DNA of 64,000 bases from Yuukianura sp. NJ FZ-2021 (taxonomy: Eukaryota), in the NCBI GenBank assembly GCA_046563655.1, contig CM102290.1, positions 2,294,001 to 2,358,000 of the forward strand, in the 5' to 3' direction. The position numbers and the translations under genes were made by a program. Position 1 is the stretch's first letter, and each line of letters opens with the position of its first letter. Below the pieces are notes generated by a model that did not search any database, was not told where the DNA came from, and was given only the letters and a program-made list of their open reading frames with translations. This document shows positions 27,001-46,619 of this stretch, in pieces.

Positions 27001-30000
27001 CAAATTCCAAAAAGTTAAAAGTTTAGTAGGAAAATCACTCTTTTTAAATAACATAATTCCAAATTCCAAAAAGTTAAAAGTTTAGTAGGAAAATCACTCT
27101 TTTTAAATAACATAATTCCAAATTCCAAAAAGTTAAAAGTTTAGTAGGAAAATCACTCTTTTTAAATAACATAATTCCAAATTCCAAAAAGTTAAAAGTT
27201 TAGTAGGAAAATCACTTTTTTTAAATAACATAATTCCAAATTCCAAAAAGTTAAAAGTTTAGTAGGAAAATCACTTTTTTTAAATAACATAATTCCAAAT
27301 TCCAAAAAGTTAAAAGTTTAGTAGGAAAATCACTCTTTTTAAATAACATAATTCCAAATTCCAAAAAGTTAAAAGTTTAGTAGGAAAATCACTCTTTTTA
27401 AATAACATAATTCCAAATTCCAAAAAGTTAAAAGTTTAGTAGGAAAATCACTCTTTTTAAATAACATAATTCCAAATTCCAAAAAGTTAAAAGTTTAGTA
27501 GGAAAATCACTCTTTTTAAATAACATAATTCCAAATTCCAAAAAGTTAAAAGTTTAGTAGGAAAATCACTCTTTTTAAATAACATAATTCCAAATTCCAA
27601 AAAGTTAAAAGTTTAGTAGGAAAATCACTCTTTTTAAATAACATAATTCCAAATTCCAAAAAGTTAAAAGTTTAGTAGGAAAATCACTCTTTTTAAATAA
27701 CATAATTCCAAATTCCAAAAAGTTAAAAGTTTAGTAGGAAAATCACTCTTTTTAAATANNNNNNNNNNNNNNNNNNNNNNNNNNNNNNNNNNNNNNNNNN
27801 NNNNNNNNNNNNNNNNNNNNNNNNNNNNNNNNNNNNNNNNNNNNNNNNNNNNNNNNNNAAATCACTTTTTTTAAATACCATAATTCCAAATTCCAAAAAG
27901 TTAAAAGTTTAGTAGGAAAATCACTCTTTTTAAATACCATAATTCCAAATTCCAAAAAGTTAAAAGTTTAGTAGGAAAATCACTCTTTTTAAATACCATA
28001 ATTCCAAATTCCAAAAAGTTAAAAGTTTAGTAGGAAAATCACTCTTTTTAAATAACATAATTCCAAATTCCAAAAAGTTAAAAGTTTAGTAGGAAAATCA
28101 CTCTTTTTAAATAACATAATTCCAAATTCCAAAAAGTTAAAAGTTTAGTAGGAAAATCACTCTTTTTAAATAACATAATTCCAAATTCCAAAAAGTTAAA
28201 AGTTTAGTAGGAAAATCACTCTTTTTAAATAACATAATTCCAAATTCCAAAAAGTTAAAAGTTTAGTAGGAAAATCACTCTTTTTAAATAACATAATTCC
28301 AAATTCCAAAAAGTTAAAAGTTTAGTAGGAAAATCACTTTTTTTAAATACCATAATTCCAAATTCTAAAAAGTTAAAAGTTTAGTAGGAAAATCACTCTT
28401 TTTAAATAACATAATTCCAAATTCCAAAAAGTTAAAAGTTTAGTAGGAAAATCACTCTTTTTAAATAACATAATTCCAAATTCCAAAAAGTTAAAAGTTT
28501 AGTAGGAAAATCACTCTTTTTAAATAACATAATTCCAAATTCTAAAAAGTTAAAAGTTTAGTAGGAAAATCACTTTTTTTAAATACCATAATTCCAAATT
28601 CCAAAAAGTTAAAAGTTTAGTAGGAAAATCACTCTTTTTAAATAACATAATTCCAAATTCTAAAAAGTTAAAAGTTTAGTAGGAAAATCACTCTTTTTAA
28701 ATACCATAATTCCAAATTCCAAAAAGTTAAAAGTTTAGTAGGAAAATCACTATTTTTAAATACCATAATTCCAAATTCCAAAAAGTTAAAAGTTTAGTAG
28801 GAAAATCACTTTTTTTAAATAACATAATTCCAAATTCCAAAAAGTTAAAAGTTTAGTAGGAAAATCACTCTTTTTAAATAACATAATTCCAAATTCCAAA
28901 AAGTTAAAAGTTTAGTAGGAAAATCACTTTTTTTAAATACCATAATTCCAAATTCCAAAAAGTTAAAAGTTTAGTAGGAAAATCACTTTTTTTAAATACC
29001 ATAATTCCAAATTCCAAAAAGTTAAAAGTTTAGTAGGAAAATCACTTTTTTAAATAACATAATTCCAAATTCCAAAAAGTTAAAAGTTTAGTAGGAAAAT
29101 CACTCTTTTTAAATAACATAATTCCAAATTCCAAAAAGTTAAAAGTTTAGTAGGAAAATCACTTTTTTTAAATACCATAATTCCAAATTCCAAAAAGTTA
29201 AAAGTTTAGTAGGAAAATCACTTTTTTTAAATACCATAATTCCAAATTCCAAAAAGTTAAAAGTTTAGTAGGAAAATCACTCTTTTTAAATAACATAATT
29301 CCAAATTCCAAAAAGTTAAAAGTTTAGTAGGAAAATCACTTTTTTTAAATACCATAATTCCAAATTCCAAAAAGTTAAAAGTTTAGTAGGAAAATCACTC
29401 TTTTTAAATACCATAATTCCAAATTCCAAAAAGTTAAAAGTTTAGTAGGAAAATCACTTTTTTTAAATACCATAATTCCAAATTCCAAAAAGTTAAAAGT
29501 TTAGTAGGAAAATCACTCTTTTTAAATAACATAATTCCAAATTCCAAAAAGTTAAAAGTTTAGTAGGAAAATCACTCTTTTTAAATAACATAATTCCAAA
29601 TTCCAAAAAGTTAAAAGTTTAGTAGGAAAATCACTCTTTAAATAACATAATTCCAAATTCCAAAAAGTTAAAAGTTTAGTAGGAAAATCACTCTTTTTAA
29701 ATAACATAATTCCAAATTCCAAAAAGTTAAAAGTTTAGTAGGAAAATCACTTTTTTTAAATACCATAATTCCAAATTCCAAAAAGTTAAAAGTTTAGTAG
29801 GAAAATCACTCTTTTTAAATAACATAATTCCAAATTCCAAAAAGTTAAAAGTTTAGTAGGAAAATCACTCTTTTTAAATAACATAATTCCAAATTCCAAA
29901 AAGTTAAAAGTTTAGTAGGAAAATCACTCTTTTTAAATAACATAATTCCAAATTCCAAAAAGTTAAAAGTTTAGTAGGAAAATCACTCTTTTTAAATAAC

Positions 30001-30590
30001 ATAATTCCAAATTCCAAAAAGTTAAAAGTTTAGTAGGAAAATCACTTTTTTTAAATAACATAATTCCAAATTCCAAAAAGTTAAAATTTTAGTAGGAAAA
30101 TCACTTTTTTTAAATAACATAATTCCAAATTCCAAAAAGTTAAAAGTTTAGTAGGAAAATCACTCTTTAAATAACATAATTCCAAATTCCAAAAAGTTAA
30201 AAGTTTAGTAGGAAAATCACTTTTTTTAAATAACATAATTCCAAATTCCAAAAAGTTAAAAGTTTAGTAGGAAAATCACTTTTTTTAAATAACATAATTC
30301 CAAATTCCAAAAAGTTAAAAGTTTAGTAGGAAAATCACTTTTTTTAAATAACATAATTCCAAATTCCAAAAAGTTAAAAGTTTAGTAGGAAAATCACTTT
30401 TTTTAAATAACATAATTCCAAATTCCAAAAAGTTAAAAGTTTAGTAGGAAAATCACTCTTTTTAAATAACATAATTCCAAATTCCAAAAAGTTAAAAGTT
30501 TAGTAGGAAAATCACTCTTTTTAAATAACATAATTCCAAATTCCAAAAAGTTAAAAGTTTAGTAGGAAAATCACTTTTTTTAAATAACAT
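1..30590. repeat. 59-bp tandem satellite array, left part (consensus TTTAGTAGGAAAATCACTCTTTTTAAATAACATAATTCCAAATTCCAAAAAGTTAAAAG), ~515 monomers, contains a 100-N gap
   Basis: Directly visible: the unit shifts by 1 nt per 60-nt line. Only a few recurrent variants occur (CACTC/CACTT, TAACAT/TACCAT, TTCCA/TTCTA, AAAGAG, AAAATTTT, T-run length). Confidence 0.99.
27759..27858. other. Assembly gap (100 N), true size unknown
   Basis: Exactly 100 N with the same satellite in the same orientation on both sides. Confidence 0.99.
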
Positions 30591-30929
30591 TTTTTTTCAT
30601 TTCATTTTCATTTATTCTCCTGTTTCTGGCAGGCTTTTCAGAATAAGTATTAATGATAGTTCTAATAGCTTGTAATTAATGTTAGCAATATATTTAGCGT
30701 ATATGTATCAGTTGTAATTTAAAGAAAGGTGCGTATATTAATCGTTACTAGGATTATTGTTGGGAAGTGGAGTTTCTAAATGGTAATTTTTTTTTAAAAT
30801 GTTGTAAAATTATGTTTTTTTTTCCTTTAAATTTGTGATATATTATGACTTACATATAATTATTTTGCTTTAAATCTTTCGTTGCTAAAATAAGTATTTT
30901 TACGTATTGTTAATATGCATATTCAATAT

Positions 30930-33785
30930 TCAATCCTCTTCCTCAACATCATTTCGGCGTTCGAGTTCATTGTGTTGAGCTTTCATAAAATGGTCCTTAA
31001 GCTTCATTTTTATTGCAATTGGATTGGTAAGACGTCGTACATCCTCTTCCGTCTCCATCCACTTGCGAAAACCACTTGCTTTGAAGGATTGAGGATGAAT
31101 TTTCCGGTTTAAATTTGCTACATGAGTTTTCTTTCTAGTAGTTGTGCTTGATTGAGTAGACTGGATTTCGCTGAAGTAATTTGTAAAGTAATTTGGGCAG
31201 TTTCCTGAGATGATAGTCGAAACTAAATATGTAGTACGGAAATCAGTTAGGTGTTTGGGGAAGAGCCAGTTCAATTCGGTCGTAACCTTCGCTTTCACTG
31301 GATCATATTTCTTCACGTTGAGTACAAATCTTCCTGCCGAACGTATAACTTTTTCCATAGTTTTAAGGTGTTGCTTGTTTGCTTTTCCCCAGATCTCACA
31401 CATATATGTAACTTTGGAGAGAACGTAAGCTTCCATCATAGTTTTCCTGTTTTTCATATTGAGAAATCTTTGCAGAGGATAGAGTGACGCTATGACACTG
31501 CGTGCTTTCTTAGAAATGGATGTAATGTGAGCGTCCCATTTCATTGAACTGTCAATAATTAATCCTAAGCTGGTAATTTGTTTACTTGATTTAACACTTT
31601 CTCCGCAAATTAGAAAGTTCATTTCGCCGACACTTTTTAGGATGCTGGGTTTAGCGCATAATAGAATTGCACTTTTAGTTGGGTTAATGTTCAACTGATT
31701 TTCAGTCATCCACTTAACAACAAATTCCACACTTTCTTCAACTTCTTGTTTAAACTGTTGCAGGGTGCTTGGGTCTCCAGTAACTACCATAGTGTTGTCG
31801 TCAGCAAACATGATGAGGAGATTTTTGCTACGTTGTTGGAATTTCAGTAGAAGATCGTTGACCATGATGGTGAAAAGTAGAGGTGAAAGTATTCCGCCTT
31901 GAGGAGTTCCACGTTTAATGTATATGTTTCCGGATCTTTCCCCGCCCAGTGAGACGAATTGTTTCCGTGCGGATAGATAGGAGGAAAACCATTTGCTTTC
32001 GATTTCGTACCATGACAGCTTTTCCAGTAGGACGTTCCGGTTGACCGTGTCGAAAGCCTTGGATAAATCTAGAGTTATGACAGCGCAGACTTTGTTTCTA
32101 TGAAAGCCATCATATAAGGCATCGGTTACTGCAAGTTGGGCGTGAACTGTTGAACTTCCTTTGATGAACCCAAATTGATTTTTGTGCATTACATTATTAT
32201 CTTCCAAATGTTTCAGCAGTTGAGATTGTGCGCACTTTTCAATGATTTTAGAAAGTACAGGAAGTATTGATATGGGTCTGTAATCCTTAAGACCACAGGG
32301 CTTCCGGCATTTGGGAATTGGAATAATTTGTGCTTGCTTGAGAGAGTCTGGAACCACTGACGATTTGAAACTTTCGTTGATTATGTCCGTCACACTGTAG
32401 AGTATGTTAGGAGCACGTAAAGTTAGTTCAATCATGTATGCACATAGTCCAGTAGTGTCGGTTGTAGTTGAATTCTTTTTTTTCATTTTGTTCCATGATG
32501 TAGCCACCTCTCGTGTTGTGACGTTTTTAAGGTGAAACTTTTTGTTAATTGTTGGCAGACATTCGGGTTTATTTAGAGTTGGCGAGTCATTAGACCAATT
32601 TGTAGGGACGGATGCAAAAAAGTTGTTCAGTTGGTCTGCATTAAATTTGGTCTCGTTTGGTTGTAGTTTCTTCTTGTTTACTTGACAAAACTTATCGATG
32701 GCCTTATGAACTCCTAAATGTTTAATTTCGTTATTTAAATGATTTGTTGTGTCCGTTTTTACTGCGGAATTGACCAGTTTTTTAAAAGCCTTTAGCTTTT
32801 GGTTGTAGAATGGTTCCCCCAGCATGTAGCGTTTGAAGTGGTCCCTCTTTTTCATCAGATCCCGAGTTGCCTGGGTGATGAAGCACTTATTTGGTCGTTC
32901 CCTGATTACAATTTTTTGAACTGGGGCATAAACATCAAAATTTTGTAATAATTTTTCTGTAAGAAAGTCTAATTTGGACTCGACAGTATTGAGCGATGAA
33001 GTTTCTTGAATGTTGATGATAGAACTCGCCAGTTGCTCGTAATTAATTTTTTTGAAATTTCGGGAGCGAATAGTTGATCTCAGTTTCTGTGGCTTGTAAG
33101 AGTGAATTTCTGCGAGAAGTAGGTCATGGTCGGAAATGTTGCATTCGGTAACTTTGCAATATGTGATTGTAGTAGGTGAATTGGTCAGAAACAGATCGAG
33201 CATGTTCTCACCTCGAGTCGGTTCATTGATTAATTGTTTGAATGAATGTATTTTTGCAATTCTAGACAGTTCTTTGTACTCCGATACGGCTGGGAGGTTG
33301 AAATCACCAATTATGTAATGAGGAGAACCACCATGTTGATTTTCTGCCAGAAGGTCTTCAATTTTATTGAAATCATCATGTAGCACTTGACTGAGTTTAT
33401 TGGGTGGGCGATAAGCACATGACACTACAAAACTTTTGTTGAAGTTTACTTGTACTTTTAATGTGATTAATTCTAGCGAATGATCTGTTGTAGAAGGAGA
33501 TTTTGATTCACTTAGCACTTTAATAGTATTTTTAATTAAGATTCCGACGCCACCGCCACGTTTATGGATGCGATCATTTCTATAGAGCAGGAATCCTGGA
33601 GGTATGATTGCTTGGATACTTGCGTTAAGCCACGTTTCACTTAGGCACAATATGTCAATCTGATGTTCATCTAGAAGATTACAGATTTCGGGCAATTTAT
33701 TTGAGTATGAGCGTATGTTAAGATGGCCAATTTTTAATTGGAATTTGGCTTTTACGTGTGTCTGTTGAGAAGTCTGTTGAGATAG
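30930..33785 (-). CDS. LINE ORF2: AP-like endonuclease + reverse transcriptase (951 open codons; no initiator AUG; the ORF track starts it artificially at a TTG at 33695)
   Basis: EN motifs LKIGHLNIRS (upstream of the track start), LCLSETW, YRPP, GDFN, SDH. RT motifs YRPISILPVLSKIIEK, QFGF, DLSKAFDTV, PQGGILSPLLF, FADD, LGLIID. No internal stops or frameshifts. Confidence 0.95.
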   Translation of the reverse strand, partial: LSQQTSQQTHVKAKFQLKIGHLNIRSYSNKLPEICNLLDEHQIDILCLSETWLNASIQAIIPPGFLLYRNDRIHKRGGGVGILIKNTIKVLSESKSPSTTDHSLELITLKVQVNFNKSFVVSCAYRPPNKLSQVLHDDFNKIEDLLAENQHGGSPHYIIGDFNLPAVSEYKELSRIAKIHSFKQLINEPTRGENMLDLFLTNSPTTITYCKVTECNISDHDLLLAEIHSYKPQKLRSTIRSRNFKKINYEQLASSIINIQETSSLNTVESKLDFLTEKLLQNFDVYAPVQKIVIRERPNKCFITQATRDLMKKRDHFKRYMLGEPFYNQKLKAFKKLVNSAVKTDTTNHLNNEIKHLGVHKAIDKFCQVNKKKLQPNETKFNADQLNNFFASVPTNWSNDSPTLNKPECLPTINKKFHLKNVTTREVATSWNKMKKKNSTTTDTTGLCAYMIELTLRAPNILYSVTDIINESFKSSVVPDSLKQAQIIPIPKCRKPCGLKDYRPISILPVLSKIIEKCAQSQLLKHLEDNNVMHKNQFGFIKGSSTVHAQLAVTDALYDGFHRNKVCAVITLDLSKAFDTVNRNVLLEKLSWYEIESKWFSSYLSARKQFVSLGGERSGNIYIKRGTPQGGILSPLLFTIMVNDLLLKFQQRSKNLLIMFADDNTMVVTGDPSTLQQFKQEVEESVEFVVKWMTENQLNINPTKSAILLCAKPSILKSVGEMNFLICGESVKSSKQITSLGLIIDSSMKWDAHITSISKKARSVIASLYPLQRFLNMKNRKTMMEAYVLSKVTYMCEIWGKANKQHLKTMEKVIRSAGRFVLNVKKYDPVKAKVTTELNWLFPKHLTDFRTTYLVSTIISGNCPNYFTNYFSEIQSTQSSTTTRKKTHVANLNRKIHPQSFKASGFRKWMETEEDVRRLTNPIAIKMKLKDHFMKAQHNELERRNDVEEED

Positions 33786-34631
33786 TCAGAATGACGAGGG
33801 TACACTACTTGCACCCGAGTTTGCTTGTCGATTCGCCATCTTCGGAGGGGAACGTAATGTTAAACTGCTTCGCGAAAATCCGGAAGTGGCATCGTAGGTT
33901 GTAGTTGGGACTGCAGCAGGAATCGTCGTTCTTTGAATGGGGTTGCTCATCGGTGGAATTGTTTCGGTGCGTTGTCTACGTGCGGCGATTTTCTTTCGCG
34001 TGGCTAGTGGTAAATCTTGTGTGATATTGATGTTCGGAACAATACTTTTTATAGTATTTTTGGCTGTCCAGATGGCATTGCGGGCTTCCAGTGACTTGAA
34101 TGTGATCTTTATGGGCTTCGACGGATTTTGTGTAGTCGGACGTCCTAGACGATAAAGATCATCGATTATTGGGTAGGCGAGCATTGGCACCGCTTGGGAA
34201 AAAATTCTTTCCATTTCTGCTTTAACAGATTCCATCGTCTCATTGTTTGAATGTAGGACACCGTGTATAATCAAATTGCTTTTGTTGATTGTAATTTGTA
34301 GCCTTTCCAGATCATCTTCATGCGTGTGGATATGAGTAATAAGCAGTTTTTGTTGGTCTTCGGTAGCATAAACTCTGTCTTTGATATGAGATACTTCGGC
34401 ACTCAGAGATTGGAATTGTTGAGTCAGTTCAGAATGATTTGCAGTGACAGTGTCGTTGAGGGTCGATACTTTGTTGGCGAGTAGGTTTACAGTTTGATTG
34501 AGGGTATTTAAAGCTGCTAGTATGGATGCTGATTCTGTTTCCCCCATTTTCAGTGATTTATTCGAAGGTGATTCGTCGTTTTTGGACTTCCGTTTCCTTC
34601 CACGAGTCTTCGGTTCATCTACTGAGCTCAT
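33786..34631 (-). CDS. LINE ORF1 protein (281 aa): basic NLS-like N-terminus, coiled coil, RRM-like domain, Pro/Ser/Thr-rich tail
   Basis: KTRGRKRK, a heptad-rich segment, and the NLIIHGV...YRLGR...PIKITF...ITQDLP pattern typical of LINE ORF1p. It lies directly 5' of ORF2. Confidence 0.88.
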   Translation of the reverse strand: MSSVDEPKTRGRKRKSKNDESPSNKSLKMGETESASILAALNTLNQTVNLLANKVSTLNDTVTANHSELTQQFQSLSAEVSHIKDRVYATEDQQKLLITHIHTHEDDLERLQITINKSNLIIHGVLHSNNETMESVKAEMERIFSQAVPMLAYPIIDDLYRLGRPTTQNPSKPIKITFKSLEARNAIWTAKNTIKSIVPNINITQDLPLATRKKIAARRQRTETIPPMSNPIQRTTIPAAVPTTTYDATSGFSRSSLTLRSPPKMANRQANSGASSVPSSF

Positions 34632-35218
34632 TAGACGTCATCAATAACTGGTTCTAGATATACACGAAATTGGGTGCCAGTATCTTTTTTACTTCGTACA
34701 TAACATGAGTTATAGCTCCTTCGGGCTAACATTTACTATAAGTAAGAAGGAACTTACTTCTGTATGTTCCGACAGCTGATTATTCAGTTTCTAGTTTCTG
34801 TTCTTCAGTAGCTCCAGTTGTCCAGTAGTCCAGTAGTCCAGTGTACCTTGATAGTATTTGGCAGTTGGAGGTTGAAAAACAATCTTCAGTATTCAAAAGT
34901 TTTGAAAAATTCAACGATGTCAAGGTAAGTTTTTTGTTCTGTTTTTTTCTCGTGTCCATCGAACGCAATTTGAAAATTATTTGCACATTATTTGATTAAT
35001 TAAAACAATGTGTGGAAAAATTGTGTGAGGTATGAATTGTTAGTGGAAATTTTACGGTATCTGATATTGTTTTTGGACAATGTTAGAGACAGATCTCGAG
35101 ACAAAGTAGTGAACAGAGCTCCTTATTGGCTGGTCATGGACAGAAATTGGGGTCAGACTGTAAGCCTGTTACATATGAACTGCTTCCTTTATGGCTTTTA
35201 ATCGTTAAGTTTAATCGT

Positions 35219-38200
35219 TAACATAATTCCAAATTCCAAAAAGTTAAAATTTTAGTAGGAAAATCACTCTTTTTAAATAACATAATTCCAAATTCCAAAA
35301 AGTTAAAAGTTTAGTAGGAAAATCACTCTTTTTAAATAACATAATTCCAAATTCCAAAAAGTTAAAAGTTTAGTAGGAAAATCACTCTTTTTAAATAACA
35401 TAATTCCAAATTCCAAAAAGTTAAAAGTTTAGTAGGAAAATCACTTTTTTTAAATAACATAATTCCAAATTCCAAAAAGTTAAAAGTTTAGTAGGAAAAT
35501 CACTCTTTTTAAATAACATAATTCCAAATTCCAAAAAGTTAAAAGTTTAGTAGGAAAATCACTTTTTTTAAATAACATAATTCCAAATTCCAAAAAGTTA
35601 AAAGTTTAGTAGGAAAATCACTTTTTTTAAATAACATAATTCCAAATTCCAAAAAGTTAAAAGTTTAGTAGGAAAATCACTCTTTTTAAATAACATAATT
35701 CCAAATTCCAAAAAGTTAAAAGTTTAGTAGGAAAATCACTTTTTTTAAATAACATAATTCCAAATTCCAAAAAGTTAAAAGTTTAGTAGGAAAATCACTC
35801 TTTTTAAATAACATAATTCCAAATTCTAAAAAGTTAAAAGTTTAGTAGGAAAATCACTCTTTTTAAATAACATAATTCCAAATTCCAAAAAGTTAAAAGT
35901 TTAGTAGGAAAATCACTCTTTCTAAATAACATAATTCCAAATTCCAAAAAGTTAAAAGTTTAGTAGGAAAATCACTCTTTTTAAATAACATAATTCCAAA
36001 TTCCAAAAAGTTAAAAGTTTAGTAGGAAAATCACTCTTTTTAAATAACATAATTCCAAATTCTAAAAAGTTAAAAGTTTAGTAGGAAAATCACTCTTTTT
36101 AAATAACATAATTCCAAATTCCAAAAAGTTAAAAGTTTAGTAGGAAAATCACTCTTTTTAAATAACATAATTCCAAATTCCAAAAAGTTAAAAGTTTAGT
36201 AGGAAAATCACTCTTTTTAAATAACATAATTCCAAATTCCAAAAAGTTAAAAGTTTAGTAGGAAAATCACTTTTTTTAAATAACATAATTCCAAATTCCA
36301 AAAAGTTAAAAGTTTAGTAGGAAAATCACTCTTTTTAAATAACATAATTCCAAATTCCAAAAAGTTAAAAGTTTAGTAGGAAAATCACTTTTTTTAAATA
36401 CCATAATTCCAAATTCCAAAAAGTTAAAAGTTTAGTAGGAAAATCACTCTTTTTAAATACCATAATTCCAAATTCCAAAAAGTTAAAAGTTTAGTAGGAA
36501 AATCACTTTTTTTAAATAACATAATTCCAAATTCCAAAAAGTTAAAAGTTTAGTAGGAAAATCATTCTTTCGTTCTTTTAAAATAACATAATTCCAAATT
36601 CCAAAAAGTTAAAAGTTTAGTAGGAAAATCACTTTTTTTAAATAACATAATTCCAAATTCCAAAAAGTTAAAAGTTTAGTAGGAAAATCACTCTTTTTAA
36701 ATAACATAATTCCAAATTCCAAAAAGTTAAAAGTTTAGTAGGAAAATCACTTTTTTTAAATAACATAATTCCAAATTCCAAAAAGTTAAAAGTTTAGTAG
36801 GAAAATCACTCTTTTTAAATAACATAATTCCAAATTCTAAAAAGTTAAAAGTTTAGTAGGAAAATCACTCTTTTTAAATAACATAATTCCAAATTCCAAA
36901 AAGTTAAAAGTTTAGTAGGAAAATCACTCTTTCTAAATAACATAATTCCAAATTCCAAAAAGTTAAAAGTTTAGTAGGAAAATCACTCTTTTTAAATAAC
37001 ATAATTCCAAATTCCAAAAAGTTAAAAGTTTAGTAGGAAAATCACTCTTTTTAAATAACATAATTCCAAATTCTAAAAAGTTAAAAGTTTAGTAGGAAAA
37101 TCACTCTTTTTAAATAACATAATTCCAAATTCCAAAAAGTTAAAAGTTTAGTAGGAAAATCACTCTTTTTAAATAACATAATTCCAAATTCCAAAAAGTT
37201 AAAAGTTTAGTAGGAAAATCACTCTTTTTAAATAACATAATTCCAAATTCCAAAAAGTTAAAAGTTTAGTAGGAAAATCACTTTTTTTAAATAACATAAT
37301 TCCAAATTCCAAAAAGTTAAAAGTTTAGTAGGAAAATCACTCTTTTTAAATAACATAATTCCAAATTCCAAAAAGTTAAAAGTTTAGTAGGAAAATCACT
37401 TTTTTTAAATACCATAATTCCAAATTCCAAAAAGTTAAAAGTTTAGTAGGAAAATCACTCTTTTTAAATACCATAATTCCAAATTCCAAAAAGTTAAAAG
37501 TTTAGTAGGAAAATCACTTTTTTTAAATAACATAATTCCAAATTCCAAAAAGTTAAAAGTTTAGTAGGAAAATCACTTTTTTTTAATCAACATAATTCCA
37601 AATTCCAAAAAGTTAAAAGTTTAGTAGGAAAATCACTCTTTTTAAATAACATAATTCCAAATTCCAAAAAGTTAAAAGTTTAGTAGGAAAATCACTCTTT
37701 TTAAATAACATAATTCCAAATTCCAAAAAGTTAAAAGTTTAGTAGGAAAATCACTCTTTTTAAATAACATAATTCCAAATTCCAAAAAGTTAAAAGTTTA
37801 GTAGGAAAATCACTTTTTTTAAATACCATAATTCCAAATTCCAAAAAGTTAAAAGTTTAGTAGGAAAATCACTCTTTTTAAATAACATAATTCCAAATTC
37901 CAAAAAGTTAAAAGTTTAGTAGGAAAATCACTCTTTTTAAATAACATAATTCCAAATTCCAAAAAGTTAAAAGTTTAGTAGGAAAATCACTCTTTTTAAA
38001 TAACATAATTCCAAATTCCAAAAAGTTAAAAGTTTAGTAGGAAAATCACTCTTTTTAAATAACATAATTCCAAATTCCAAAAAGTTAAAAGTTTAGTAGG
38101 AAAATCACTCTTTTTAAATAACATAATTCCAAATTCCAAAAAGTTAAAAGTTTAGTAGGAAAATCACTCTTTTTAAATAACATAATTCCAAATTCCAAAA

Positions 38201-41200
38201 AGTTAAAAGTTTAGTAGGAAAATCACTCTTTTTTAAATAACATAATTCCAAATTCCAAAAAGTTAAAAGTTTAGTAGGAAAATCACTTTTTTAAATAACA
38301 TAATTCCAAATTCCAAAAAGTTAAAAGTTTAGTAGGAAAATCACTCTTTTTAAATAACATAATTCCAAATTCCAAAAAGTTAAAAGTTTAGTAGGAAAAT
38401 CACTCTTTTTAAATAACATAATTCCAAATTCCAAAAAGTTAAAAGTTTAGTAGGAAAATCACTCTTTTTAAATAACATAATTCCAAATTCCAAAAAGTTA
38501 AAAGTTTAGTAGGAAAATCACTCTTTTTAAATAACATAATTCCAAATTCCAAAAAGTTAAAAGTTTAGTAGGAAAATCACTCTTTTTAAATAACATAATT
38601 CCAAATTCCAAAAAGTTAAAAGTTTAGTAGGAAAATCACTTTTTTTAAATAACATAATTCCAAATTCCAAAAAGTTAAAAGTTTAGTAGGAAAATCACTC
38701 TTTTTAAATAACATAATTCCAAATTCCAAAAAGTTAAAAGTTTAGTAGGAAAATCACTTTTTTTTAAATAACATAATTCCAAATTCCAAAAAGTTAAAAG
38801 TTTAGTAGGAAAATCACTTTTTTTAAATAACATAATTCCAAATTCCAAAAAGTTAAAAGTTTAGTAGGAAAATCACTCTTTTTAAATAACATAATTCCAA
38901 ATTCCAAAAAGTTAAAAGTTTAGTAGGAAAATCACTTTTTTTAAATACCATAATTCCAAATTCCAAAAAGTTAAAAGTTTAGTAGGAAAATCACTCTTTT
39001 TAAATAACATAATTCCAAATTCCAAAAAGTTAAAAGTTTAGTAGGAAAATCACTCTTTTTAAATAACATAATTCCAAATTCTAAAAAGTTAAAAGTTTAG
39101 TAGGAAAATCACTCTTTTTAAATAACATAATTCCAAATTCCAAAAAGTTAAAAGTTTAGTAGGAAAATCACTCTTTTTAAATAACATAATTCCAAATTCC
39201 AAAAAGTTAAAAGTTTAGTAGGAAAATCACTCTTTTTAAATAACATAATTCCAAATTCCAAAAAGTTAAAAGTTTAGTAGGAAAATCACTCTTTTTAAAT
39301 AACATAATTCCAAATTCCAAAAAGTTAAAAGTTTAGTAGGAAAATCACTCTTTTTAAATAACATAATTCCAAATTCCAAAAAGTTAAAAGTTTAGTAGGA
39401 AAATCACTCTTTTTAAATAACATAATTCCAAATTCCAAAAAGTTAAAAGTTTAGTAGGAAAATCACTCTTTTTAAATAACATAATTCCAAATTCCAAAAA
39501 GTTAAAAGTTTAGTAGGAAAATCACTCTTTTTAAATAACATAATTCCAAATTCCAAAAAGTTAAAAGTTTAGTAGGAAAATCACTCTTTTTAAATAACAT
39601 AATTCCAAATTCCAAAAAGTTAAAAGTTTAGTAGGAAAATCACTCTTTTTAAATAACATAATTCCAAATTCCAAAAAGTTAAAAGTTTAGTAGGAAAATC
39701 ACTCTTTTTAAATAACATAATTCCAAATTCCAAAAAGTTAAAAGTTTAGTAGGAAAATCACTCTTTTTAAATAACATAATTCCAAATTCCAAAAAGTTAA
39801 AAGTTTAGTAGGAAAATCACTCTTTTTAAATAACATAATTCCAAATTCCAAAAAGTTAAAAGTTTAGTAGGAAAATCACTCTTTTTAAATAACATAATTC
39901 CAAATTCCAAAAAGTTAAAAGTTTAGTAGGAAAATCACTCTTTTTAAATAACATAATTCCAAATTCCAAAAAGTTAAAAGTTTAGTAGGAAAATCACTCT
40001 TTTTAAATAACATAATTCCAAATTCCAAAAAGTTAAAAGTTTAGTAGGAAAATCACTCTTTTTAAATAACATAATTCCAAATTCCAAAAAGTTAAAAGTT
40101 TAGTAGGAAAATCACTCTTTTTAAATAACATAATTCCAAATTCCAAAAAGTTAAAAGTTTAGTAGGAAAATCACTCTTTTTAAATAACATAATTCCAAAT
40201 TCCAAAAAGTTAAAAGTTTAGTAGGAAAATCACTCTTTTTAAATAACATAATTCCAAATTCCAAAAAGTTAAAAGTTTAGTAGGAAAATCACTCTTTTTA
40301 AATAACATAATTCCAAATTCCAAAAAGTTAAAAGTTTAGTAGGAAAATCACTCTTTTTAAATAACATAATTCCAAATTCCAAAAAGTTAAAAGTTTAGTA
40401 GGAAAATCACTCTTTTTAAATAACATAATTCCAAATTCCAAAAAGTTAAAAGTTTAGTAGGAAAATCACTCTTTTTAAATAACATAATTCCAAATTCCAA
40501 AAAGTTAAAAGTTTAGTAGGAAAATCACTCTTTTTAAATAACATAATTCCAAATTCCAAAAAGTTAAAAGTTTAGTAGGAAAATCACTCTTTTTAAATAA
40601 CATAATTCCAAATTCCAAAAAGTTAAAAGTTTAGTAGGAAAATCACTCTTTTTAAATAACATAATTCCAAATTCCAAAAAGTTAAAAGTTTAGTAGGAAA
40701 ATCACTCTTTTTAAATAACATAATTCCAAATTCCAAAAAGTTAAAAGTTTAGTAGGAAAATCACTCTTTTTAAATAACATAATTCCAAATTCCAAAAAGT
40801 TAAAAGTTTAGTAGGAAAATCACTCTTTTTAAATAACATAATTCCAAATTCCAAAAAGTTAAAAGTTTAGTAGGAAAATCACTCTTTTTAAATAACATAA
40901 TTCCAAATTCCAAAAAGTTAAAAGTTTAGTAGGAAAATCACTCTTTTTAAATAACATAATTCCAAATTCCAAAAAGTTAAAAGTTTAGTAGGAAAATCAC
41001 TCTTTTTAAATAACATAATTCCAAATTCCAAAAAGTTAAAAGTTTAGTAGGAAAATCACTCTTTTTAAATAACATAATTCCAAATTCCAAAAAGTTAAAA
41101 GTTTAGTAGGAAAATCACTCTTTTTAAATAACATAATTCCAAATTCCAAAAAGTTAAAAGTTTAGTAGGAAAATCACTCTTTTTAAATAACATAATTCCA

Positions 41201-42782
41201 AATTCCAAAAAGTTAAAAGTTTAGTAGGAAAATCACTCTTTTTAAATAACATAATTCCAAATTCCAAAAAGTTAAAAGTTTAGTAGGAAAATCACTCTTT
41301 TTAAATAACATAATTCCAAATTCCAAAAAGTTAAAAGTTTAGTAGGAAAATCACTCTTTTTAAATAACATAATTCCAAATTCCAAAAAGTTAAAAGTTTA
41401 GTAGGAAAATCACTCTTTTTAAATAACATAATTCCAAATTCCAAAAAGTTAAAAGTTTAGTAGGAAAATCACTCTTTTTAAATAACATAATTCCAAATTC
41501 CAAAAAGTTAAAAGTTTAGTAGGAAAATCACTCTTTTTAAATAACATAATTCCAAATTCCAAAAAGTTAAAAGTTTAGTAGGAAAATCACTCTTTTTAAA
41601 TAACATAATTCCAAATTCCAAAAAGTTAAAAGTTTAGTAGGAAAATCACTCTTTTTAAATAACATAATTCCAAATTCCAAAAAGTTAAAAGTTTAGTAGG
41701 AAAATCACTCTTTTTAAATAACATAATTCCAAATTCCAAAAAGTTAAAAGTTTAGTAGGAAAATCACTCTTTTTAAATAACATAATTCCAAATTCCAAAA
41801 AGTTAAAAGTTTAGTAGGAAAATCACTCTTTTTAAATAACATAATTCCAAATTCCAAAAAGTTAAAAGTTTAGTAGGAAAATCACTCTTTTTAAATAACA
41901 TAATTCCAAATTCCAAAAAGTTAAAAGTTTAGTAGGAAAATCACTCTTTTTAAATAACATAATTCCAAATTCCAAAAAGTTAAAAGTTTAGTAGGAAAAT
42001 CACTCTTTTTAAATAACATAATTCCAAATTCCAAAAAGTTAAAAGTTTAGTAGGAAAATCACTCTTTTTAAATAACATAATTCCAAATTCCAAAAAGTTA
42101 AAAGTTTAGTAGGAAAATCACTCTTTTTAAATAACATAATTCCAAATTCCAAAAAGTTAAAAGTTTAGTAGGAAAATCACTCTTTTTAAATAACATAATT
42201 CCAAATTCCAAAAAGTTAAAAGTTTAGTAGGAAAATCACTCTTTTTAAATAACATAATTCCAAATTCCAAAAAGTTAAAAGTTTAGTAGGAAAATCACTC
42301 TTTTTAAATAACATAATTCCAAATTCCAAAAAGTTAAAAGTTTAGTAGGAAAATCACTCTTTTTAAATAACATAATTCCAAATTCCAAAAAGTTAAAAGT
42401 TTAGTAGGAAAATCACTCTTTTTAAATAACATAATTCCAAATTCCAAAAAGTTAAAAGTTTAGTAGGAAAATCACTCTTTTTAAATAACATAATTCCAAA
42501 TTCCAAAAAGTTAAAAGTTTAGTAGGAAAATCACTCTTTTTAAATAACATAATTCCAAATTCCAAAAAGTTAAAAGTTTAGTAGGAAAATCACTCTTTTT
42601 AAATAACATAATTCCAAATTCCAAAAAGTTAAAAGTTTAGTAGGAAAATCACTCTTTTTAAATAACATAATTCCAAATTCCAAAAAGTTAAAAGTTTAGT
42701 AGGAAAATCACTCTTTTTAAATAACATAATTCCAAATTCCAAAAAGTTAAAAGTTTAGTAGGAAAATCACTCTTTTTAAATA
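35219..42782. repeat. 59-bp tandem satellite array, right part (~128 monomers), same orientation as left part
   Basis: Same unit resumes at TAACATAATTCC right after the LINE 5' end and stops abruptly at ...CTCTTTTTAAATA|CTAACATT. Confidence 0.99.
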
Positions 42783-43629: not shown

Positions 43630-46619
43630 ATGGGTGATCACATTGACCAAGGAGAACCTATTGAGCCATCTCTGGAAGCGGAGTAAGTTATTGTCAATTA
43701 GTTTAGGTTGGGTTAAAAGTTGTCGACAACTTCTCCGTAACTGTATGGATATTGAATACAATTTAATTTAGCTAGTTCTTCTATTTTTAGGTCAACTGGA
43801 TTAGCTACTGAAGGGTCTCCTAACAATGTGAAAGTCGTTTATCCGGTTTTGAGAGAACTTAATCCCAACGCTAAGCCATTTCGTTTTCGTACCGTCAAAG
43901 ATGAGTTACGATACCGCCTGCTTGGACGTGGAGAAGAATCCTCCGCTAATCCTCCTGGACCGGGAAGTTTGGCTGGTGCTACGTCAGTGGTGAACGGTAC
44001 AAATTACAAGGAATTGTTTCTAGTCGGTATCAATTAACACTTTGTTTTATGACACATTGTTCTCTTCCATTTGACATAAAGGTGAAGGAGCACAGGAGGA
44101 AATAGGGGCAATTGGAGGCAGTTTACCAAGAACCAGTAGCAACTCCCGGATAAACCATAATGATTCTTCAGAAGAGGAATACTTCTTTGGAAAACTTGGG
44201 AGGTCAAAAGGTTAACGACTTTGTGAATTGGCATATAAACTCGTTCAAATTCCATCTTTAACAACTGGATTGTACATTCAGGACTTCCTTATTACTTACC
44301 GTTAGGGGAACCTCCAACTCCGTACGTATGGACTCCTTATAGTACCCATCGTATTGTAAGTTTCTGGTTTTAGAAACACATTTAAGATTGAGCCAACCAA
44401 GATTATTTTGTCTCCTAAGCAGTTCCAGCAACCTGCCCCTGGAAACTACGTCTCTGCTCGTCCACAAGAAGATTCTGTCAACAATATGCCAGGAGCACCG
44501 TGGAGCGGTGGGTTTGACAATCGTCATTTGCATTCCCTAAGCTCAACTGAAATGCTGCAGAGGATCAACAGCAAATTAGAAGAACATTCTTACTTCCAGA
44601 GTCGATGTGCTCGATACATGTTCTATTTGAATCAAAAACTGAACGAGGCAAGTGGGTTACTGTCAATCACTCTTATAACATTGGAAATCTTATTTATTGG
44701 AAATCATATAACATTTACCAACCGTAACTATATGAATTTTCACTTTGCAGGTTTCCACACGCTTAGACGTTGTTGATGAAAGACGCGGAGATGTCAACTC
44801 TTCCGTTGGCGCAGAATTTCGTGAGCCGGAGTTACTCAATTACTGGAAAAATTTTGGTTCCGCAGGGAGTAAAGCCTATTATGGTCGGCAACCACCAGAC
44901 AACGAATTCTGGCAAGGCGAAACTGGTTTCAATGCTACAATGTCTGCTGCTCCAACCCAAGAGTCTTATGCAGTTGGGACTGAGACGTTGATGAACAACA
45001 ACCTGATGTTGAACAACAAAGTTCCTCCCGGATCAAGGGCAAATAACTTTTACGACAACTTCCGCAGGTTACAACCAAACTTAAGGCGGACAGTATTTAG
45101 TTTGTTAGTATTTACTTACAGTTTTTTTTTTTACGTTTCAGTTATACACAGCAGAACATGTTGTCTATTCCTAAGAATATTCCGCCAGGGGGACTGGGGT
45201 CATCTGCCGCTGCTGCTACTAACTGGTACCCACCATCGGCCGAGTCTCGTCAACGGGAGGTTTCCACCACATCCTCTGGAAATACTCTCCGAAATTCTGG
45301 AAATCAAAGGAATTCATTTGCTCGAACTGAGTTCGTTGAGAATATTGGCACAAAATTGAGGAATCAAGAGAACGAAGCGCAGCCCAGACCTCCACCACAG
45401 CAGGAGAGTAAGTTTTCCACGGTTACAGCCGTTGCAAATTGCAACTTGCAATTTCAAATCACACTTTGTTTGGTATTGCAGCAGCAAGGGCTCGGAAGAA
45501 CGACACAGCAGGGACTAGTGGTATTGGAAGATCTTCGCGGAGGAGGGAATCAGCAGGAACATCCGTTTTTGAAGCGTAAGATAAATATAAAGCCTTTGCA
45601 CATTTGATTGATTTATGCATGTACACCCCATTCTCTAAATAAGAAACTAAAAACCTCAACCTCAGCCCTTTCTCCATTTCTTGTCGTGGGCCTCAGTGAG
45701 GCTTCCTTTAACGCCGCACTGAGGCCTCATTGAAAAGAAATGGAGAAAGGTTTGAGGTTTTTAGTTACTTATTTACAGAATGCACTGCAACTTTATATGG
45801 TTGTCCTATTTCAATTTTAGTGGCGTCGAGGGAGATGAAACGGCCAGATCCATTATCGATGTCATTTCTGTATTCCTTGAAAACAACGGTGATTACCCAG
45901 ACTTCATTTTCTCGTTGTTTGAGAAGCTTGGCAACATCCGCTCCGATTCAGACAGAAACAGGGTCCTGTCCATGTTCAGTCAATTGATTCCGAACTCTCC
46001 AAGTGCTGCAGCACCCGTCAAAGGAACTCGAATGTCAATTCCGTCAGTTGCAGATCCTTTGATATCCCATGAGCTACAGGGCCAAGCAGCCTCACTCAAC
46101 TACAATGAACAATCCTCTTCTTCTCGTCAATCCTCGGCTTCTAACACTTCTCGCCGTAGCAACCAAGCAACGAAACAAACTGAACTTGAAGGAAGGCAAA
46201 ACATTCGGCCAGGGCAAGGACTCTTTGGAGACAAATCCTCTGGAACAGCATCAGCGAGTGGGCAGTCTTTGCAGCGATCTGTGACCGAGTCCATGGTGCC
46301 TCTTGGTCCAAACCAGGATGAACCAATGCTGCAGAAGAGCTGCTGGGCACCTACGTTGGGTGCAGACGACGGTTGGGCCAACTGTCGCAAGGAATCTTCA
46401 ATGGTGACTTCATTTTTTTTTATCATGTAGTACTTACTAGTCCTCAATGTAGAATACTTATTTTGGTTTGACTTTTAGGAGCTGAATAACAAGGACTCGT
46501 GGTTTCTGAAGTCTGGGACAAATGAGACTGCTGCCGCTGCCAGTAGTCCTGCTGCAGCAGCAGCACCGCCGCTCGAATATGGTCCACCCGTGATTGATGT
46601 AAGTTTTTTAGATGACTGA
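43630..46619 (+). CDS. Multi-exon gene (~10 exons, roughly 700 aa), PCM1 (pericentriolar material 1)-like
   Basis: Spliceable frame from ATG 43630. The motif LNNKVPPGSRANNFYDNFR|SYTQQNMLS across intron 45069-45141 and IIDVISVFLENNGDYPDFIFSLFEKLGNIRSDSDRNRVL resemble conserved PCM1-family segments (from recall, not searched). AATAAA at 46831. Confidence 0.6.

Follow-up and report, generated by a model that had tools for sequence, protein, structure and literature searches.

How does a long interspersed nuclear element (LINE) make its endonuclease and reverse transcriptase when the second of its two open reading frames (ORFs) offers no start codon ahead of the endonuclease? The question is raised by a LINE on the minus strand at 30591..35218 of the 64,000-nucleotide stretch analysed here (Yuukianura sp. 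NJ FZ-2021, contig CM102290.1, positions 2,294,001 to 2,358,000; hereafter the window). The translation of ORF2 from a bicistronic LINE RNA is a long-standing puzzle, to which a readthrough signature offers a simple, testable alternative. The original prediction, made from the letters of this DNA alone, held that ORF1 and ORF2 are one reading frame split by a leaky stop codon. Based on a comparison with related LINEs we consider it likely that programmed readthrough of UGA-CUA yields a minor fusion of ORF1, endonuclease and reverse transcriptase (ORF1-EN-RT) beside the terminated ORF1 protein.

The junction between ORF1 and ORF2

With the standard code, only two stop-to-stop frames of at least 80 codons were found in 29500-36500, namely 33786..34637 and 30930..33785, and they abut on one strand (-) and in one frame. 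The minus-strand sequence at 33696-33800 was identical to that quoted in the original prediction, and the two abutting frames bore out its description of one frame split by a single TGA-CTA with 951 open codons to follow. ORF1 (33789..34631, minus strand) encodes 281 aa from an ATG at 34631, with an in-frame TGA three codons 5' of this ATG. It has a basic N-terminus, a coiled-coil-like stretch, an RRM-like core (motifs NLIIHGV, YRLGRP, PIKITF and ITQDLPLATR, in this order) and a tail rich in Pro, Ser and Thr; a Pfam search with ORF1 gave no match above the cut-off. The ORF1 stop codon TGA (33786..33788, minus strand), which is the proposed readthrough site, and the CTA codon after it (33783..33785, minus strand) were both read directly and together form the hexanucleotide UGACUA.

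The ORF2 frame, delimited stop to stop (30930..33785, minus strand), consists of 951 codons and a TGA stop at 30930-30932. An apurinic/apyrimidinic-type endonuclease domain was found at ORF2 residues 22-220 (33126..33722, minus strand; PF03372 Exo_endo_phos, E 7e-12) and a reverse transcriptase domain at residues 494-743 (31557..32306, minus strand; PF00078 RVT_1, E 1.5e-37). A linker of 16 codons (33738..33785, minus strand) separates the stop from the first endonuclease motif, LKIGHLNIRS, which begins at codon 17 after the TGA. No in-frame AUG or one-base neighbour of AUG was found in this linker; the first such codon is the ATT of codon 19, which already belongs to the first endonuclease motif. 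Directly after TGA CTA there is an in-frame tandem duplication of 12 nt (33759-33782, minus strand; TCTCAACAGACT TCTCAACAGACA, peptide SQQT SQQT), which brings the linker to its 16 codons, compared to a median of 13 codons (39 nt) between stop and endonuclease in the relatives.

The first in-frame ATG of ORF2 (33201..33203, minus strand) is codon 195; it lies late in the endonuclease domain, 178 codons past its start and downstream of the NIRS, SETW, YRPP and GDFN motifs. Translation gave the same position for this first AUG (33203) as the original prediction, and the same length of 1233 residues for ORF1 and ORF2 read through together. A stop-start arrangement of the SART1 type was not found at this junction, where neither an ATG before codon 195 nor a near-cognate codon before codon 19 is present. 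A 2A (StopGo) sequence was also looked for; in non-LTR (non-long terminal repeat) elements this motif is D(V/I)ExNPGP on the N-terminal side of ORF2 (PMC3708506, excerpt; all PMC citations in this text refer to excerpts of the papers), and no NPGP was present in the 1233-residue translation. Two features of type II readthrough were found in the window element, that is, a long coding frame that runs on in frame past a single stop, and the stop context UGA-CUA. The original prediction had called UGA-CUA a leaky context, and UGACUA is indeed listed as a type II readthrough hexanucleotide, a class of two that depends on a structure downstream only conditionally, with UAGGGV, UAGGUA and UAGGAU as the type III motifs (PMC13517186).

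The stop codon in the ORF1 family

A full HMMER scan of 1.84 billion representatives gave 142 homologues of ORF1 at E<=0.001, including hypothetical proteins of Folsomia candida. All of them stand alone, at lengths of 151-649 aa. Identity to ORF1 reaches 35% in the best match, and homology stops at about query residue 215-250, after which the tails are variable and of low complexity. A search centred on the junction returned 17 matches among proteins of 678-2158 aa, which were ORF2-like (26-39% identity) and matched on the endonuclease side only. In the loci gathered for the comparison below, none of 144 stop-to-stop frames of the ORF1 family ran into an endonuclease. The original prediction had named a sense codon at this position in other copies as the sign of a private nonsense mutation, and no such codon was found in relatives of the same ORF1 family. 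The window stop falls precisely where ORF1 homology has ended and the endonuclease has yet to begin. With 142 of 142 homologues standing alone and 0 of 144 frames entering an endonuclease, sequence comparison argues that a stop between ORF1 and endonuclease is the rule in this ORF1 family, and that the TGA in the window is no private mutation.

An ORF2-profile match was found in one of the 144 frames. This frame (L224, G014:C64:84645-87995; minus-strand frame 1353-2547 of the locus, 398 codons) joins an ORF1 RRM (profile positions 100-211) directly to reverse transcriptase (472-649), the endonuclease being absent, and may represent either a LINE with an internal deletion or a derived gene.

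Comparison with related LINEs

Relatives of ORF2 were collected from metagenome contigs (365 among 532 pattern matches, 80 kept) and from a prokaryote genome collection (178 among 226 matches, 80 kept), whereas no ORF2 relative was found in a viral contig collection. The nearest ORF2 sequences were contigs at 24-39% identity. All those from the genome collection were on contigs binned into metagenome-assembled genomes (MAGs), and these LINE contigs are presumably eukaryotic host DNA. In a first pass over LINEs with any type of ORF1, 7 of 20 had ORF1 and ORF2 in frame, which equals the chance expectation. In the six in-frame LINEs with a single stop, this stop was always TGA or TAG, not TAA, and an ATG before the endonuclease was absent from five of them. 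The count of 7 in 20 was set aside as a test and the census was limited to the ORF1 family of the window element.

For this census 25 records were searched with a profile of the ORF1 family (alignment A2), and matches were found in 16 of them; all places listed for G007 were taken. A hidden Markov model pipeline on 272 sequences gave 70 non-duplicate loci in which a frame of the ORF1 family is followed by an endonuclease on the same strand. Filtering for an ORF1 of at least 200 codons, an ORF2 open for at least 200 codons and the presence of the endonuclease N-terminus left 53 LINEs, of which no pair reached 80% ORF1 identity and which formed 43 clusters at 50% and 18 at 35%. Three decayed loci with several stops (L165, L166, L169), which have the ORF1 family and an endonuclease, were filtered out. 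LINE-bearing contigs were seen in many bacterial and archaeal MAG records (G001-G025, behind L081-L160), G007 having 54 matches to the ORF1 profile.

Among the 53 LINEs, ORF1 and ORF2 were in frame with a single stop between them in 37, in frame with several stops in 2 and out of frame in 14. The in-frame total of 39 exceeds the expected one third (binomial p 2.5e-9; 29 of 43 when counted by 50% clusters, p 5e-6). By source, the 37 elements are 25 from G007, 4 from G006, 3 from G008, 2 from G011, L152, L075 and the window element. Their stops are TAG-G (30 of 30 TAG), TGA-C (6 of 6 TGA) and, in one element, TAA-G. The out-of-frame elements have TAA (9) or TAG (5, with G following in 2) and never TGA. 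TAG-G or TGA-C was thus found in 36/37 in-frame and 2/14 out-of-frame elements (p 7e-9; by 50% clusters 26/27 versus 2/14, p 1.4e-7), and a TAA stop in 1/37 versus 9/14 (p 6e-6). An ATG at or upstream of the endonuclease start was present in 2/37 in-frame and 11/14 out-of-frame elements (p 5e-7). The original prediction had regarded an AUG or a frameshift before the endonuclease in other copies as speaking against readthrough. For the in-frame relatives its expectation held, with 35 of 37 having no such ATG, whereas 14 of the 53 are out of frame and 11 of these 14 carry an ATG. Taken together, the shared frame with its one stop, the context TGA-C or TAG-G and the missing ORF2 start form a signature that, at the level of sequence, separates the 37 in-frame from the 14 out-of-frame relatives.

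The codons after TAG are GAA, GAC, GAG, GAT, GCA, GCC, GGA, GGG and GTG. They encode five amino acids (E, D, A, G and V) and share their first base only, and the constraint is therefore on the nucleotide and not on the residue. Of 10 distinct in-frame TGA junctions, 7 continue with CTA (window, L145, L190, L194, L206, L220 and L152) and the others with CTC, CAA and CAT. These TGA-CTA junctions stem from at least four sources (window, G008, G014 and L152), while CTA accounts for 1.5% of the codons in the ORFs of the relatives, the window element excluded. Stop and context were kept among distant relatives in which the flanks have diverged, as is expected of type II readthrough. A similar layout was also found with unrelated types of ORF1, in L025 and L044 (ORF2 43% identical, in-frame TGA, no ATG before the endonuclease) and in L054, which has an in-frame TAG-G.

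Four out-of-frame elements (L068, L264, L267 and L272) lack an ATG in the ORF2 frame ahead of the endonuclease, and this frame shares 34-170 nt with the 3' end of ORF1. These elements are candidates for ribosomal frameshifting, not readthrough.

Phylogeny of the endonuclease

A quick maximum-likelihood tree was built from 240 endonuclease residues of the 53 LINEs. Two clades, of 28 and 25 elements, were obtained. The clade of 28 contains 27 TAG-G elements and one decayed relative, and the clade of 25 is made up of 14 out-of-frame elements, 6 with TGA-C (the window element among them), 3 with TAG-G, one in-frame element with several stops and L196 with TAA-G. The window element is on a long branch and is closest in identity to L194, also a TGA-CTA element, at 34% over 190 columns. 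The TAG-G label required at least four changes on the quick tree. L248 (in frame, TAG-GAT, no early ATG) groups as a sister with the out-of-frame L264 (TAA-A) at a support of 98, both being from G007, and this pair of opposite layouts is a natural one for studying how a layout switch happens. On this quick tree the layout appears to have changed repeatedly. Frame, stop type, next base and absence of an ORF2 start shift together, more than once, across proteins that are 20-45% identical.

Because these four properties co-vary in the relatives, we favour readthrough, for such co-variation would be expected of in-frame elements that reach ORF2 through inefficient termination. A shared frame alone would be a 1-in-3 event, and it is the comparative pattern that goes beyond chance.

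Proposed mechanism

In the proposed mechanism most ribosomes would stop at the UGA and release the ORF1 protein. In a minority, a near-cognate tRNA would read the UGA, and these ribosomes would stay in frame across the 16-codon linker and go on to translate endonuclease and reverse transcriptase. The product would be the 1233-residue ORF1-EN-RT fusion, which would be the sole route to a complete endonuclease. How much ORF1 protein is made relative to enzyme would be governed by the leakiness of the stop, as it is for retroviral Gag and Gag-Pol. In the out-of-frame relatives, termination would be tight and ORF2 would begin at its own AUG. The support for readthrough is comparative, coming from the single in-frame stop in 37 of 53 LINEs and the TGA-C or TAG-G context in 36 of these 37, and it is from this that we infer the occurrence and efficiency of readthrough and the fusion as an active protein. 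By analogy, the fusion may be the functional enzyme, with its ORF1 part anchoring it in the ribonucleoprotein.

A more general proposal, which we hold to be somewhat more probable than its opposite, is that a large and old group of animal LINEs with a coiled-coil/RRM ORF1 makes its endonuclease and reverse transcriptase only as an ORF1-ORF2 readthrough fusion. This group would use interchangeable UGA-C (mostly UGA-CUA) and UAG-G signals, which would have arisen repeatedly from out-of-frame ancestors bearing an AUG. LINEs would then have their own strategy of the Gag/Gag-Pol type, the ORF1 module of the enzyme tying it to the ORF1 coat on its own RNA.

Evidence against readthrough and alternative explanations

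Several observations weigh against readthrough in the window element. A 3' stimulatory RNA structure, which is only a conditional requirement for UGACUA, was not found: no stable structure was detected 3' of the window stop (z -0.5 compared to shuffles), and nine TGA relatives had z values of -2.0 to +1.0, with only L206 reaching -2.0. Exceptions to the context were seen in L025 (TGA-T, other ORF1 type), in the decayed L275 (TGA-A) and in L196 (TAA-G). In mammals, termination at UAG is usually favoured by a purine at +4; if so, an additional signal may be required in the TAG-G group. L119 has an ATG two codons past its in-frame TAG, where its relative L112 has AAG, and L241 has an ATG just before the endonuclease; given these ATGs, some lineages may use reinitiation. 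Regarding the sample, a single record, G007, supplied 25 of the 37 in-frame comparators, the eukaryotic origin of the comparators is judged from their content, and they are distant, the window element sharing at most 34% identity with them over 190 endonuclease columns. The window context is UGA-CUA-U, whereas the form measured in human genes is UGACUAG (PMC13517186). Finally, translation of human L1 ORF2 is reported to be AUG-independent, so the absence of an AUG alone is no proof of readthrough (PMC5009743, PMC5972666).

The L1 case leads to an alternative in which ribosomes terminate at the UGA and then reinitiate, or initiate unconventionally, without an AUG a few codons downstream, giving a separate ORF2 protein and leaving the shared frame incidental. 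We regard this as unlikely. The UAAUG stop-start of SART1 is a precedent (PMC5009743, PMC5972666, PMC3708506), and in most relatives, in frame or not, the ORF1 stop lies within or adjoins the open ORF2 frame, an arrangement compatible with coupling in general. In addition, L119 has its ATG in the place where L112 has AAG. However, reinitiation needs no shared frame, yet 39 of the 53 LINEs are in frame, and it predicts neither the TGA-C or TAG-G of 36 of the 37 single-stop elements nor the scarcity of TAA among them (1/37 versus 9/14). For a restart, the window element offers neither an AUG nor a near-cognate codon ahead of the first endonuclease motif, and no structure was found downstream of its stop, whereas SART1 is described with one. 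It is also conceivable that the copy is defective for ORF2 and makes either no enzyme or an endonuclease-less reverse transcriptase from the ATG at codon 195, its open frame reflecting youth and not function. One copy only was read, and most LINE copies in any genome are dead. Even so, this seems quite improbable for an element with intact ORFs (281 and 951 codons), a target-site duplication and a 3' tail, whose family is young and multi-copy with 103 of 308 contigs of one sequencing run at least 99% alike, and whose start-less in-frame layout recurs in 35 of 37 diverged relatives with a long open ORF2.

A private nonsense mutation in an element of a family with a single long ORF would need one base change to make the TGA, and the site was read in one copy only. 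This explanation is very improbable and close to refuted, with all 142 ORF1 homologues standing alone, no fused form among the matches of 678-2158 aa, none of the 144 frames entering an endonuclease, and a stop placed exactly between ORF1 homology and endonuclease, where the stop of the relatives has a conserved context. We give almost no credence to the idea that there is no stop at all and that the host decodes TGA as an amino acid, by a variant code or as selenocysteine. With TGA as a sense codon ORF2 would become only nine codons longer, ending at a TAA, and the end of ORF2 is compatible with this. But the 1233 codons contain a single TGA and all Trp codons are TGG in DNA of about 71% A+T, and in relatives of several sources the stop at this site is TAG or TGA, both of which also serve there as ordinary ORF ends. 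No SECIS (selenocysteine insertion sequence) or other Rfam family was found at E<=1 over 30500-35300. Programmed readthrough of UGA-CUA is the explanation we prefer.

In the TAG group, the regions 3' of the stop had unremarkable z values of -1.7 to +2.4. Many TAG-G loci (L188, L192, L198, L204, L207, L212, L231, L243 and others) have a G-rich stretch and a short G/C hairpin in the first 30 nt past the stop. Examples are GGG CAT GGCCGAGGCC and GGG GGC GTGGGGAAAGCCACGC, and peptides encoded after the stop include GHGRG, GAGRGP and GHTGKA. The G-rich stretch recalls the purine-rich spacer of Moloney murine leukaemia virus (MoMLV).

Relation to known systems

The proposed arrangement resembles gammaretroviral Gag-Pol as in MoMLV, where an RNA-binding structural protein upstream and a polymerase downstream share one frame with one stop and a minority of product is a fusion, the fusion being a proposal in our case. 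MoMLV uses the context UAG-GGA together with a pseudoknot (PMC13517186), and UAG-GGN is shared by TAG-G relatives. Unlike MoMLV, the window element is a non-LTR element and has no protease, so that the fusion would stay uncleaved, and it has UGA-CUA with no pseudoknot or stable 3' structure found. The hexanucleotide UGACUA is identical to that of alphavirus nsP3/nsP4 and of Plautia stali intestine virus (PMC13517186). These are, however, RNA viruses, in which extended 3' stem-loops increase the efficiency, whereas no stem-loop was detected in the retrotransposon of the window.

Described mechanisms for LINE ORF2 are the stop-start of SART1, the unconventional initiation of L1 and 2A skipping in single-ORF elements (PMC5009743, PMC5972666, PMC3708506). 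Zorro3 requires its ORF2 ATG. As in SART1 and mammalian L1, where ORF2 is made by ribosomes that have translated ORF1, the LINE RNA is bicistronic (PMC5972666, PMC3708506, PMC5009743). The SART1 AUG overlaps the stop and L1 has a 63-nt spacer, and neither makes a fusion, whereas in the window element 194 codons pass without an AUG, and both frame and stop context are constrained in its relatives.

In the full-text literature searched, which leaves most subscription journals outside its coverage, we found no account of readthrough between ORF1 and ORF2 of a LINE. Noma, Ohtsubo and Ohtsubo are said to have described in 2000 (DNA Res 7:291) Arabidopsis ATLN elements with orf1 and orf2 in one frame and an amber codon between them, and to have suggested readthrough, which would make these elements an earlier instance of the idea in LINEs. 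ATLN elements are reportedly plant L1-type LINEs with a different ORF1, and we know of no context statistics or experimental test for them. The present case would be a recoding of known type in a new setting, probably widespread in one LINE group.

If readthrough does take place, the efficiency of termination sets the ratio of ORF1 protein to enzyme, and the fusion of the enzyme to an RNA-binding ORF1 module gives a ready explanation for cis preference. In that case, annotation pipelines that require an ATG for ORF2 mis-call such elements, and cellular retroelements are a natural panel of readthrough contexts.

The element and its surroundings

The window element is a full-length, apparently intact LINE (non-LTR retrotransposon) of 4628 bp, inserted into a 59-bp satellite. 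This satellite fills the window from position 1 to about 42782 (98% matches) and is broken only by a gap of 100 N (27759-27858) and by the LINE; over 35219-42782 it comprises 128 copies with 98% matches. At the 5' junction the sequence reads ...ggaattatgtta up to the element and acgatt from there on, and at the 3' end it reads ...atgaaaaaaa followed by atgttattta. The insertion is flanked by a target-site duplication ATGTTA, both copies of which were read directly (5' copy 35219..35224, 3' copy 30585..30590, minus strand), and the satellite phase resumes beyond the 3' copy. The 5' untranslated region (34632..35218, minus strand) has 587 nt, and the 3' untranslated region (30591..30929, minus strand) has ATGAA-like repeats and A7 at its end. 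The absence of LTRs, the ATGTTA duplication and the (ATGAA)n A7 tail, as well as the single ORF with an apurinic/apyrimidinic-type endonuclease at its N-terminus and a reverse transcriptase behind it, are those of an APE-type (apurinic/apyrimidinic endonuclease) non-LTR retrotransposon.

No second copy of the LINE was found elsewhere in the 64-kb window. The family is multi-copy in four public sequencing runs (two organisms, two studies); no RNA run was among those listed as containing the element, which counts as evidence neither way. Similarity of the contigs to the element spans from less than 90% to at least 99%, the latter class comprising 103 of 308 contigs in run X1, and the element family is therefore young and multi-copy. 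As a rough guide, the summed contig depth climbs towards the 3' end, as is expected of a LINE with 5'-truncated copies, in X1 from about 300-450 (32602-34757) to 1200-2300 (30908-31677). A diverged contig (X3 record 16, 334 nt, covering 33690-34023) had 42 differences and 0 gaps and thus spans the ORF1/ORF2 junction without indels. In the non-repetitive right part of the window, just past the satellite, three open frames of 168-221 codons were seen on the plus strand at 44736-46430.

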